DNA from: a virus
Lineage: Duplodnaviria; Heunggongvirae; Uroviricota; Caudoviricetes
Direction: 5' to 3' (one strand)
Virus record (IMG/VR): IMGVR_UViG_637000265_000001
DNA: 64,000 bases
In this document: piece by piece, positions 59,667 to 64,000 of the stretch
Numbering within the stretch: position 1 is the stretch's first letter
Layout: every line of letters begins with the position of its first letter
The notes under the pieces: generated by a model
Database searches by the model: none
The model's input: only the letters and a program-made list of their open reading frames with translations
What the model was told of the DNA's origin: nothing
Program-made: the position numbers and the translations under genes

Positions 59667-59851
59667 ACGCCACAATTCAAACGATACCAGAGCTTCTTAT
59701 CCAGACACGAGGCAATCAGACCGAAGTGGCGAGGATGCTTTCCTGTGCAAGAGGAACAGTGCTCAAGTACAACCGAGACAGCAAAGGTGAGCGTCACGTA
59801 ATAGTTAACGGCGTCCTGATGGTCAAACAGGGCAAGAGGGGTAGACCATGA
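59663..59851 (+). CDS. NinH-like small HTH protein
   Basis: 62 aa with GNQTEVARMLSCARGTV.KY motif. Confidence 0.5.
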   Translation: MNATIQTIPELLIQTRGNQTEVARMLSCARGTVLKYNRDSKGERHVIVNGVLMVKQGKRGRP

Positions 59852-60471
59852 GACTCGAAAGTGTAGCTAAATTTCATTCGCCAAAAAGCCCGATGATGAG
59901 CGACTCACCACGGGCTACGGCTTCTGACTCTCTTTCCGGTACTGATGTGATGGCTGCTATGGGGATGGCGCAATCACAAGCCGGATTCGGAATGGCTGCA
60001 TTCTGTGGTAAGCACGAACTCAGCCAGAACGACAAACAAAAGGCTATCAACTATCTGATGCAATTTGCACACAAGGTATCGGGGAAATACCGTGGTGTGG
60101 CAAAGCTCGAAGGAAATACTAAGGCAAAGGTACTGCAAGTGCTCGCAACATTCGCTTATGCGGATTATTGCCGTAGTGCCGCGACGCCTGGCGCAAGATG
60201 CAGAGATTGTCACGGTACAGGCCGTGCGGTTGATATAGCAAAAACAGAGCAGTGGGGGAGAGTTGTTGAGAAAGAATGCGGAAGATGCAAAGGTGTCGGC
60301 TATTCAAGGATGCCAGCAAGCGCCGCATATCGCGCTGTGACGATGCTAATCCCAAATCTTACCCAACCCACCTGGTCACGCACTGTTAAGCCGCTGTATG
60401 ACGCTCTGGTGGTGCAATGCCACAAAGAAGAGTCAATCGCAGACAACATTTTGAATGCGGTCACACGTTAG
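59848..60471 (+). CDS. Q: late antiterminator Q (lambda-type)
   Basis: 207 aa MRLESVAKFHSPKSPMMSDSP... matches recalled lambda Q. Confidence 0.9.
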   Translation: MRLESVAKFHSPKSPMMSDSPRATASDSLSGTDVMAAMGMAQSQAGFGMAAFCGKHELSQNDKQKAINYLMQFAHKVSGKYRGVAKLEGNTKAKVLQVLATFAYADYCRSAATPGARCRDCHGTGRAVDIAKTEQWGRVVEKECGRCKGVGYSRMPASAAYRAVTMLIPNLTQPTWSRTVKPLYDALVVQCHKEESIADNILNAVTR

Positions 60472-60513: not shown

Positions 60514-60542
60514 TTGACTTTTTGAATAAAGTTGGGTAAATT
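60514..60542 (+). promoter_or_regulatory. late promoter pR' (-35 TTGACT, -10 TAAATT) with qut region
   Basis: Sequence matches recalled lambda pR'. Confidence 0.7.
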
Positions 60543-61139: not shown

Positions 61140-61463
61140 ATGAAGATGCCAGAAAAACATGACCTGTTAGCCGCCATTCTCGCGGCAAAGGAACAAGGCA
61201 TCGGGGCAATCCTTGCGTTTGCAATGGCGTACCTTCGCGGCAGATATAATGGCGGTGCGTTTACAAAAACAGTAATCGACGCAACGATGTGCGCCATTAT
61301 CGCCTGGTTCATTCGTGACCTTCTCGACTTCGCCGGACTAAGTAGCAATCTCGCTTATATAACGAGCGTGTTCATCGGCTACATCGGTACTGACTCGATT
61401 GGTTCGCTTATCAAACGCTTCGCTGCTAAAAAAGCCGGAGTAGAAGATGGTGGAAATCAATAA
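61140..61463 (+). CDS. S: holin S (lambda-type, dual start MKM)
   Basis: 107 aa [34 protein letters not shown]... Confidence 0.9.
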
Positions 61464-61924
61464 TCAACGTAAGGCGTTCCTCGATATGCTGGCGTGGTCA
61501 GAGGGAACTGATAACGGACGTCAGAAAACCAGAAATCATGGTTATGACGTCATTGTTGGCGGAGAGCTATTTACCGATTACTCCGATCACCCTCGCAAAC
61601 TTGTCACGCTAAACCCAAAACTCAAATCAACAGCAGCAGGACGTTACCAGCTTCTTTCCCGTTGGTGGGATGCCTATCGTAAGCAGCTTGGCCTGAAAGA
61701 CTTCTCTCCCAAAAGCCAAGACGCTGTTGCGCTGCAGCAGATTAAGGAACGTGGCGCTTTGGCCGATGATTGATCGCGGTGATATCCGTCAGGCAATCGA
61801 CCGTTGCAGCAATATCTGGGCTTCACTGCCGGGTGCTGGTTATGGTCAGTTCGAGCATAAGGCTGACAGCCTGATTGCAAAATTCAAAGAAGCAGGCGGA
61901 ACGGTCAGAGAGATTGAGGTATGA
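61447..61924 (+). pseudogene. R: endolysin R (lambda-type transglycosylase), frameshifted
   Basis: Split into 61447-61773 and 61727-61924; stop created at GCTTTGGCCGATGATTGA. Confidence 0.7.
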
Positions 61925-62358
61925 GCAGAGTAACCGCGATTATCTCCGCTCTGGTTATCTGCATCATCGTCTGTCTGTCATGGGCGGTTAATCATTACCG
62001 TGATAACGCCATGACCTACAAAGAGCAGCGCGATAAGGCCGCATCCACAATCGCTGACATGCAGAAGCGTCAACGTGATGTAGCAGAACTTGACGCCAGA
62101 TACACAAAGGAGCTTGCTGATGCTAACGCGACTATCGAAAGTCTCCGTGATGATGTTTCTGCTGGGCGTAAGCGGCTGCAAGTCGCCGCCTCATGTGCAA
62201 AGTCAAAGACCGGAGCCAGCGGCATGGGCGATGGAGAAAGCCCAGGACTTACAGCAGATGCTGAACTCAATTATTACCGTCTCCGAAGTGGAATCGACAA
62301 GATAACCGCGCAGGTTAACTACCTGCAGGAATACATCAGGACGCAATGCCTGAAATAA
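61921..62358 (+). CDS. Rz: i-spanin Rz
   Basis: 145 aa with N-terminal TM, shares N-terminus with the Rz at 1792-2274. Confidence 0.8.
62150..62305 (+). CDS. Rz1: o-spanin Rz1, embedded
   Basis: Lipoprotein-like [10 protein letters not shown] and Pro-rich body in +1 frame within Rz. Confidence 0.55.
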
Positions 62359-62559: not shown

Positions 62560-63081
62560 ATGAATATCGTGCCACTTAATTACAAAGGTGAAATTGTCAG
62601 TTTCAACACTGATGGTTGGATCAACGTCACAGGTGTTGCTGAGAGATTTGGGAAACGCATTGATAACTGGATGAGTTTGGCAGAAACGCTTGAATACGTT
62701 CGTGCTTTAGACGAAGCGTTGACCGGGAAAGAATCTCAAATTTTACATCCCTCACAATCGAGGTATGTAAAAACCAGCAAGGCACGAAAGGACAGGGGTG
62801 GTGGTACGTGGCTACATCCAAAACTTTCAGTTGCATTTGCCCGTTGGTGTGATGCTCGTTTTGCTGTGTGGTGCGACCTGCACATTGATAGTCTGCTTCG
62901 CGGTGAACTGACTGAGCAGCAGAAATATGAGCAAGCATGTCGCATTCGCGATGACCGGAAATCAAAAGCCAGCAATGGGGCAAGAGAGATGGCTCGCTGG
63001 CGATGGGATAAGCCGGTTATTGAAGCAAATGTCGAGTACTGGCGCGAGCAACTGCAGTTGACTCTCGATATCGCTTGCTGA
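62560..63081 (+). CDS. KilA-N domain protein
   Basis: 173 aa with KilA-N-like N-terminus (FNTDGWINVTGVAERFGKR). Confidence 0.65.
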   Translation: MNIVPLNYKGEIVSFNTDGWINVTGVAERFGKRIDNWMSLAETLEYVRALDEALTGKESQILHPSQSRYVKTSKARKDRGGGTWLHPKLSVAFARWCDARFAVWCDLHIDSLLRGELTEQQKYEQACRIRDDRKSKASNGAREMARWRWDKPVIEANVEYWREQLQLTLDIAC

Positions 63082-63533
63082 TGGCAAACGCAAAACTGCG
63101 TTATCGGAAAAATCAAAGCATTACGAGAACTGAGCAACAGCTATCCATTACAAAGCCCATCAATGGGTGAGCTTGATAATGAAACCGGAATTTATTCTGG
63201 GCAACCAGTTACGGCAGTACCGCGAAACAACCCAAGCCAGTAAGTGGGGAAATAACACTGGCAGCCACTGAAAGATGAACCTCCTGCCTTATGGCAAAAA
63301 AGATTCTTTGTGGTGGCGGACTGATGGAAAGACATCCTAATTTCAGCCAAACATTGAAGAAGTTGTTATGTCAGCAGAAGGTTTCAATAACCCATCAAAA
63401 TTCCGGGATGAGTGGGATAGCAGCGTAAAGAGTAAGTGATGCCATCACAAAAGCCATTCCCTACAGAGTGGCTTTGATAATGGCTTATACCCTACACGGG
63501 ATATCTTAACTGATATCCCTTTTAACGGATAAA

Positions 63534-64000
63534 TGAGGTAGCCTGAGTTTAACGGACACTCCTTCCTGAAATAGAATGGCATCAGAAGGAGCTAATAATG
63601 AGCAGAAAAACCCAACGTTACTCTAAAGAGTTCAAAGCCGAAGCTGTCAGAACGGTTCTTGAAAATCAACTTTCGATCAGTGAAGGCGCTTCCCGATTAT
63701 CTCTTCCTGAAGGCACTTTAGGACAATGGGTTACCGCCGCCAGAAAAGGGCTCGGTACTCCTGGTTCCCGCACGGTGGCTGAACTGGAATCTGAAATTCT
63801 GCAACTGCGTAAGGCGTTAAATGAAGCTCGCCTTGAGCGCGATATATTAAAAAAAGCAACAGCGTATTTTGCACAGGAGTCGCTGAAAAATACGCGTTAA
63901 TCGAACAATGGCGACAACAATTTCCCATTGAAGCGATGTGTCAGGTATTTGGTGTATCCAGGAGCGGTTATTACAACTGGGTACAGCATGAACCCTCAGA
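63534..64000 (+). mobile_element. IS600-like (IS3 family), runs off window end
   Basis: Left end TGAGGTAGCCTGAGTTTAACGG identical to the copies at 20680 and 22916; orfA present, orfB begins. Confidence 0.8.
63598..63900 (+). CDS. IS600-like OrfA
   Basis: 100 aa identical to the ORF at 22550-22852. Confidence 0.8.
   Translation: MSRKTQRYSKEFKAEAVRTVLENQLSISEGASRLSLPEGTLGQWVTAARKGLGTPGSRTVAELESEILQLRKALNEARLERDILKKATAYFAQESLKNTR

Follow-up and report, generated by a model that had tools for sequence, protein, structure and literature searches.

The R gene of the lambda-type lysis cassette near the right-hand end of the 64,000-nucleotide stretch of DNA analysed here (the window) contains a single extra G, and we consider it very probable that R is a pseudogene which arose by spontaneous duplication of that base, which is inherited in the serotype 5 lineage of Shigella flexneri and which lies within a decaying, cryptic lambdoid prophage. 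The duplication shifts the reading frame after Leu105, and a stop is reached three codons later.

The evidence for the lesion comes from the reading frames and from alignment. In the list of open reading frames of the window, the R frame starts at 61447 and meets a premature TGA at 61771-61773, giving a product of 108 amino acids with the C-terminus ...IKERGALADD; an ORF in the +1 frame, containing MIDRGDIRQAIDRCSNIW...TVREIEV, extends to 61924. The downstream remainder of R, 52 codons from Met107 to Val158, is open and undamaged in this second frame. A tblastn search with lambda R recovers residues 1-105 in frame 1 (61447-61761, 99% identity, E=8e-69) and residues 88-159, including the stop, in frame 2, where the match runs to 61924 (E=1.6e-33). 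When lambda S-R-Rz is aligned at the nucleotide level (reference J02459, with S at 45186-45509, R at 45493-45969 and Rz at 45966-46427), there is a single indel inside R, at which the window has GCTTTGGCCGATG and lambda has GCTTT-ACCTATG. The E. coli EC19 prophage and Salmonella phage epsilon34 have GCTTTGCCGATG (Ala-Leu-Pro-Met) at the position where the window has GCTTTGGCCGATG and lambda GCTTTACCTATG. Relative to these closest intact alleles, the lesion is a change of G to GG at 61761/61762, a one-base duplication at the boundary between the codons for Leu105 and Pro106. An earlier note, made from the letters alone, had described R (61447-61924) as frameshifted near its 3' end by an insertion of 1 nt relative to lambda, and this is confirmed; it had also placed the stop correctly, and its estimate of roughly 50 codons in another frame was close to the 52 that are found.

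Removal of one G restores a protein of 158 amino acids with 100% identity to R of EC19. Apart from the extra base, the window and EC19 genes differ at five nucleotides, two of them downstream of the lesion; all five differences are synonymous and none is non-synonymous. The frameshift is probably recent, because R has no other amino-acid change. The repaired protein is identical at 156 of 158 residues to lambda R and to the crystallised lambda lysozyme (PDB 1AM7, residues 1-158, E=2.6e-105), and the part in the +1 frame retains 51 of its 52 residues as in lambda. Neither fragment matched a family in a Pfam scan. In the phrog_90 endolysin profile, the 108-residue ORF occupies positions 651-762 (E=2.7e-41) and the +1-frame remainder positions 763-812; since the two ranges adjoin, the ORFs can be regarded as halves of one domain.

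The catalytic Glu19 is kept in the 108-residue ORF (...LAWSE19G20TD...). In lambda lysozyme, for which Glu19 is the catalytic residue and residues 128-141 form the upper lip, Asn122, Ile123, Ala125 and Phe135 form hydrogen bonds with the saccharide, which Trp124, Ser126, Tyr132 and Gln134 also contact (PMC6916166). The upper lip and all of these sugar-contact residues are encoded 3' of the frameshift. Residues 106-158 are absent from the truncated product, and with them the upper lip and the majority of the residues that bind saccharide; the ability to degrade murein would therefore be lost. It is very unlikely, judging from the structure, that a protein lacking a third of its length and half of its substrate cleft is active. 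R retains its homology to the family, its catalytic glutamate and its genomic position (flanked by a class I holin gene, S, and by the spanin genes Rz/Rz1, with Q and pR' upstream), but the gene no longer forms a single unbroken ORF of about 158 codons with the upper lip and the contacts at 122-135 inside it; thus, on the sequence, R is to be classed as a pseudogene of the lambda R-type endolysin family.

The other components of the late module are given in Table 1, together with the remaining features of the window, and the lesion in R appears to be the sole defect amongst them. S keeps the Met1-Lys2-Met3 dual start, and Rz agrees in length with the Rz annotated in epsilon34 and with the 'lysis protein' of EC19. 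The supposition of the earlier note that S, Rz and Rz1 have remained intact is borne out by their lengths, by identity to lambda and epsilon34 and by the Pfam matches. The stretch 3' of the late promoter resembles lambda 6S RNA/tR', which we presume it to represent. In lambda, when the holin of an S+ R- cassette is triggered, the cell stops respiring and dies, but lysis does not follow. If the present cassette were expressed, the same classical outcome would be expected, i.e. holin-mediated death without lysis; by analogy, only the endolysin step would be lost and the holin would still be lethal.

Table 1. Coordinates of the lysis genes, prophage genes and insertion sequences discussed in the text.
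Feature	Position	Strand	Description
Rz, second cassette	1792-2274	-	
Rz1, second cassette	1833-2039	-	lipobox VVGC
GH24 endolysin, second cassette	2256-2789	-	177 aa
ORF between second holin and endolysin	2855-3442	-	195 aa; phrog_1085
Holin, second cassette	3489-3704	-	71 aa
Integrase of R-bearing prophage	41942-43102	-	adjoins att core; SfV homology ends at 41945
IS1 (InsA/InsB)	48855-49552	+	leftward early region; Zn_ribbon_InsA, HTH_Tnp_IS1, DDE_Tnp_IS1
SieB	50234-50788		PHROGs
IS4-family transposase	52850-54196	-	between 434-type cro and cII; Nterm_IS4, DDE_Tnp_1
cII	54268-54606		phrog_191
Q, late-gene antiterminator	59848-60471	+	207 aa, apparently intact; phrog_127 anti-termination protein Q-like, E=6.6e-83
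pR'-type late promoter	60514-60542	+	TTGACT-17-TAAATT; promoter scan; identical to annotated PR' of epsilon34
S, holin/antiholin	61140-61463	+	107 aa, intact; 106/107 identical to lambda S; Phage_holin_3_1, E=2.4e-30
R endolysin, 5' part	61447-61773	+	residues 1-105, then out-of-frame A-D-D and TGA; phrog_90
Lesion, GG	61761-61762	+	single G in intact alleles
R endolysin, 3' part	61766-61924	+	+1 frame, Met107-Val158 and stop; phrog_90
Rz, i-spanin	61921-62358	+	145 aa, full length; Pfam Phage_lysis, E=7.4e-35
Rz1, o-spanin	62120-62305	+	61 aa, lipobox VSGC; +1 frame within Rz; length and position as annotated epsilon34 Rz1
KilA-N ORF	62560-63081	+	last phage gene before IS; Pfam KilA-N, E=3.2e-21
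IS600, left end and OrfA	63533-64000	+	continues past window; HTH_Tnp_1; phage homology stops at about 63533-63536

A second lysis cassette, of another type, is present on the minus strand at 1792-3704, and it looks intact by ORF length. Between this left-hand cassette and a DUF6971 ORF (5700-6155) is an ORF of 405 codons with a TTG start (4459-5676, minus strand), for which searches of Pfam and PHROG returned no match. An ORF at 324-1229 is presumably OrfB of an IS2 element, which it resembles.

By its sequence, the window corresponds to SHI-O/thrW in an S. flexneri of serotype 5. SHI-O of strain 8401 has been described as containing an SfV remnant of about 15 kb with IS-mediated inversions, and the searched passages of that genome paper make no mention of the R gene (PMC1550401). 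A module of SfV type, with head, tail and gtr genes that match SfV, SfI and SfII, occupies 22918-41945 (SfV coordinates 1873-20655). Towards its right-hand end, at approximately 41884-41928, an att core consisting of the 3' part of tRNA-Thr lies between gtrA and the integrase gene; gtrA, the core and the integrase gene are contiguous (41318-43102), as at an attP-like junction. A tRNA scan found no tRNA gene in the window, and an intact thrW lies just outside it. From the integrase onward, the DNA is not of SfV type and makes up a second lambdoid prophage, which is similar to HK633, HK542, mEpX2 and Sf6. Its ORFs include some that we take, from their translations, to be counterparts of lambda N and of phage 434 cI and cro; the cI-like ORF matches only HTH_3 and Peptidase_S24 in Pfam. 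Searches also identified SieB, cII, a DnaB-type helicase, genes of the nin region, RusA, Q and S-R-Rz/Rz1. The organization fits two prophages in tandem at thrW, of which the SfV-type one would have lost its int gene together with its early and lysis regions; the R-bearing prophage, with 434-type immunity and a lambda-type N, Q, pR' and S-R-Rz/Rz1, would sit beside a serotype-converting partner. Directly downstream of cI is an ORF of 158 codons (51417-51893, minus strand) with a hydrophobic N-terminal segment, whose sole match is phrog_2651, a family of unknown function. The slot downstream of cI is typical of lysogenic-conversion or exclusion morons.

The R-bearing prophage has been damaged in several places. 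An IS1 element lies in the leftward early region and an IS4-family element in the cro-cII interval, where nutR and tR1 are expected, and the two insertions should impair the transcription cascade from early to late genes. At the right-hand side, an IS600 element cuts the prophage off at the point where the packaging genes would come next. The full copy of this element is found in another contig (L002) and shows 99.9% identity to the IS600 annotated on pCP301; after it, to the right of the window, an integrase gene is represented by a 3' fragment, and an att core, the intact thrW, proA and proB follow, so that a second int/att copy is present (9352-9800 of the contig). A partial IS600 at 22080-22917 is in inverted orientation, and the intervening 40.6 kb (22918-63532) is therefore bracketed by inverted copies. 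The lysis genes are oriented towards proA, opposite to what would be expected of a normal thrW lysogen. These features suggest an IS600-mediated inversion of the bracketed segment.

Portal, scaffold, coat, DNA-stabilisation and injection proteins are encoded in a P22-like block of packaging and virion genes at 7437-20679. Its large terminase gene is 5'-truncated, the match to Terminase_6N beginning at profile position 68, and abuts an OrfB of the IS3 family; an 85-bp IS600 end lies at the right edge of the block (20680-20764). In phages such as APC_JM3.2 and IME10, P22-like virion genes are contiguous with a lysis cassette of the present type, in contrast to their displaced position in the window (8006-20679), and the block probably represents the virion module of the R-bearing prophage, moved away from its cassette. 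This prophage is thus defective for several independent reasons. The conclusion that the right-hand cassette is probably non-functional, also drawn in the earlier note, stands as far as the endolysin step is concerned; however, the frameshift is neither the only nor the main bar to phage release, because IS1, IS4, IS600, the separation from packaging and virion genes and the IS600-bracketed rearrangement all intervene. Since the prophage is cut from its virion genes and riddled with insertion sequences, the frameshift in R can be seen as one more event of decay, presumably neutral. Selection for lytic function would already have been lost, or be in the process of being lost, in a prophage hit by IS1, IS4 and IS600.

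There is a very small chance that the lesion is functionally meaningful and not neutral, either as a selected disarming of the endolysin in a late operon that can still be induced, in an intracellular pathogen, or because the overlap at GATGATTGA permits an attenuated endolysin in two pieces. The first of these proposals, which we regard as highly improbable, is that loss of R was selected to stop lysis of the host upon SOS induction, for example during intracellular life, with the holin, the spanins and other genes of the prophage retained. The lesion is indeed the sole defect in a cassette whose other parts are perfectly conserved, and the serotype 5 strains seen are fixed for it, as might be expected of a selected change. 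However, the holin alone is lethal, as is known from lambda genetics, so that loss of R does not rescue the cell; the IS4 element between cro and cII and the other insertion sequences already compromise late-gene expression; and the apparently intact second cassette (1792-3704) remains. The single lineage at hand also offers no sign of parallel events.

The second proposal starts from the overlap between the Met107 ATG (61766) and the premature stop (GATGATTGA), which makes reinitiation and an enzyme of two fragments conceivable. Ribosomes that terminate at the TGA would restart at this ATG, and the resulting fragments of 52 and 108 amino acids would associate to give residual activity. The arrangement of start and stop (G-ATG-AT-TGA) is like that of translationally coupled genes, and the break may fall between helices, although this last point is a guess. 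Against this, there is no Shine-Dalgarno sequence 5-10 nt before the ATG, the nearest AGGA being about 17 nt upstream, and the N-terminal piece ends in three foreign residues. We know of no report of fragment complementation of lambda lysozyme. Moreover, helices from both fragments form the upper domain of the enzyme (PMC6916166), and a non-covalent assembly would have to rebuild the core of that domain. A working split enzyme is extremely improbable on these grounds.

One-base indels are the commonest assembly error, and the GG is found in none of the best-listed complete E. coli genomes or phage records, as would be the case if it were an artefact of sequencing or assembly. An R homologue occurs in 2,768 of 5,426 complete E. 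coli genomes; the best 40 of the 2,780 matching records all span 477 nt, i.e. have an intact single ORF, and none of them is identical to the window. Likewise, all of the best 40 of 121 matching phage records have a single ORF over 477 nt, again with no record identical to the window, and the two contigs from GTDB species representatives that match the site both carry the intact allele, in a collection that holds one genome per species and is silent on spread within Shigella. Amongst these listed E. coli, phage and species-representative sequences the intact allele is the rule, and the lesion appears to be the derived state.

However, the 108-residue product is itself found in public records. 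At least 12 contigs of public assemblies, of which three exceed 1 Mb, encode it in exact form, and the databases list it as the 'putative endolysin' of S. flexneri 5 strain 8401 (ABF02555.1, UniRef Q0T7S1); the same protein has been deposited for S. flexneri 5a strain M90T (EID60881.1) and in a third record (SUI54378.1). The S-R-Rz DNA of five contigs, four from Logan assemblies of separate SRA runs and one from a JGI metagenome, is 100% identical to the window, with the same GG. An IMG/VR prophage contig from another genome has the same locus with the GG and differs elsewhere, by a single SNP over 6.8 kb. The sequence context is a run of 2 nt and not a long, error-prone homopolymer. Because an identical GG recurs in so many independent assemblies (three deposited genomes, four de novo Logan assemblies, the JGI contig and the IMG/VR contig), the lesion is not a sequencing error, a possibility that the earlier note had raised; we regard an extra G absent from the actual chromosome as exceedingly unlikely. 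The G duplication can accordingly be treated, from these comparisons, as a genuine and inherited mutation of the S. flexneri serotype 5 lineage (8401, M90T). A contig of 6.9 kb labelled 'MAG: Collinsella sp.' (JAIHTM010000136.1) carries an enterobacterial lambdoid Q-S-R-Rz region that is 96-97% identical to the window; this Collinsella-binned contig is most likely mis-binned or a contaminant.

Recoding, by which programmed +1 ribosomal frameshifting or transcriptional slippage would still yield full-length R, has a next to negligible probability and is rejected, for although the downstream frame is wholly open with 51 of 52 residues as in lambda, the +1 shift would have to take place inside GCT TTG GCC GAT GAT TGA, where there is no shifty site of the CUU-UGA/AGG type, 61756-61773 offers no cognate +1 re-pairing, no well-spaced stimulatory Shine-Dalgarno sequence and no long A/T run, and R is a single ORF in every relative examined, so that the two-frame layout is not conserved.

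Pseudogenisation of R by an inherited G duplication is ordinary prophage decay, and nothing about it is mechanistically new. Point pseudogenes are commonplace in cryptic Shigella prophages, and the truncated ORF of 8401 and M90T is already in GenBank and UniProt. The value of the finding is chiefly for annotation, in that the 'putative endolysin' of 108 amino acids should be relabelled as a pseudogene with a frameshift; a further use of the GG allele could be as a marker of the lineage. Studies of prophage induction or lysis in M90T should take into account that this cassette is probably without a working endolysin and that the second cassette (1792-3704) looks intact.

Among the closest known systems is that of lambda itself (R structures PDB 1AM7 and 3D3D), with which the prophage shares the gene order Q-pR'-S-R-Rz/Rz1 and 96.4% nucleotide identity over S, R and the 5' stretch of Rz, in addition to the near-identity of the repaired protein (156/158) and its Glu19. 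Unlike lambda R, the gene in the window has an insertion after codon 105, encodes 108 amino acids and has residues 107-158 in another frame. The closest intact alleles, among the matches listed, are those of the EC19 prophage (WP_000229392.1; 98.7% identical) and of epsilon34 (gp65; 97.7% identical, with a single G and an ORF of 158 codons), and the cassettes of these two share the Rz/Rz1 type of the window (145 and 61 amino acids). More generally, intact R alleles of lambdoid and P22-like members (EC19, epsilon34, HK620, Sf6 and HK97) are 96-99% identical to the window in nucleotides across R, but all have GCTTTGCCGATG and one ORF of 158 codons. R is a lytic transglycosylase, and NCBI annotates it in related genomes as a glycoside hydrolase family 24/104 protein.

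SfV (NC_003444) also has an R of 158 amino acids within an S, R, Rz, Rz1 cassette, and the same neighbourhood of gtrV/gtrB/gtrA and thrW att. Its cassette differs from that of the window, with about 84% identity over part of R only and with another S and Rz. The idea that the cassette in the window is SfV's own can be rejected, as the early and lysis regions differ and homology to SfV is limited to the head, tail, gtr and att part at 22918-41945. Cryptic lambdoid remnants are familiar from E. coli K-12 (DLP12, Rac and Qin), where decay has proceeded by IS insertion, deletion, inversion and point pseudogenisation, and the phage remnants in S. flexneri SHI-O resemble the window in showing IS-mediated decay with some genes still intact. 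In contrast to the K-12 and SHI-O remnants, the lysis cassette described here is complete save for one base in R.
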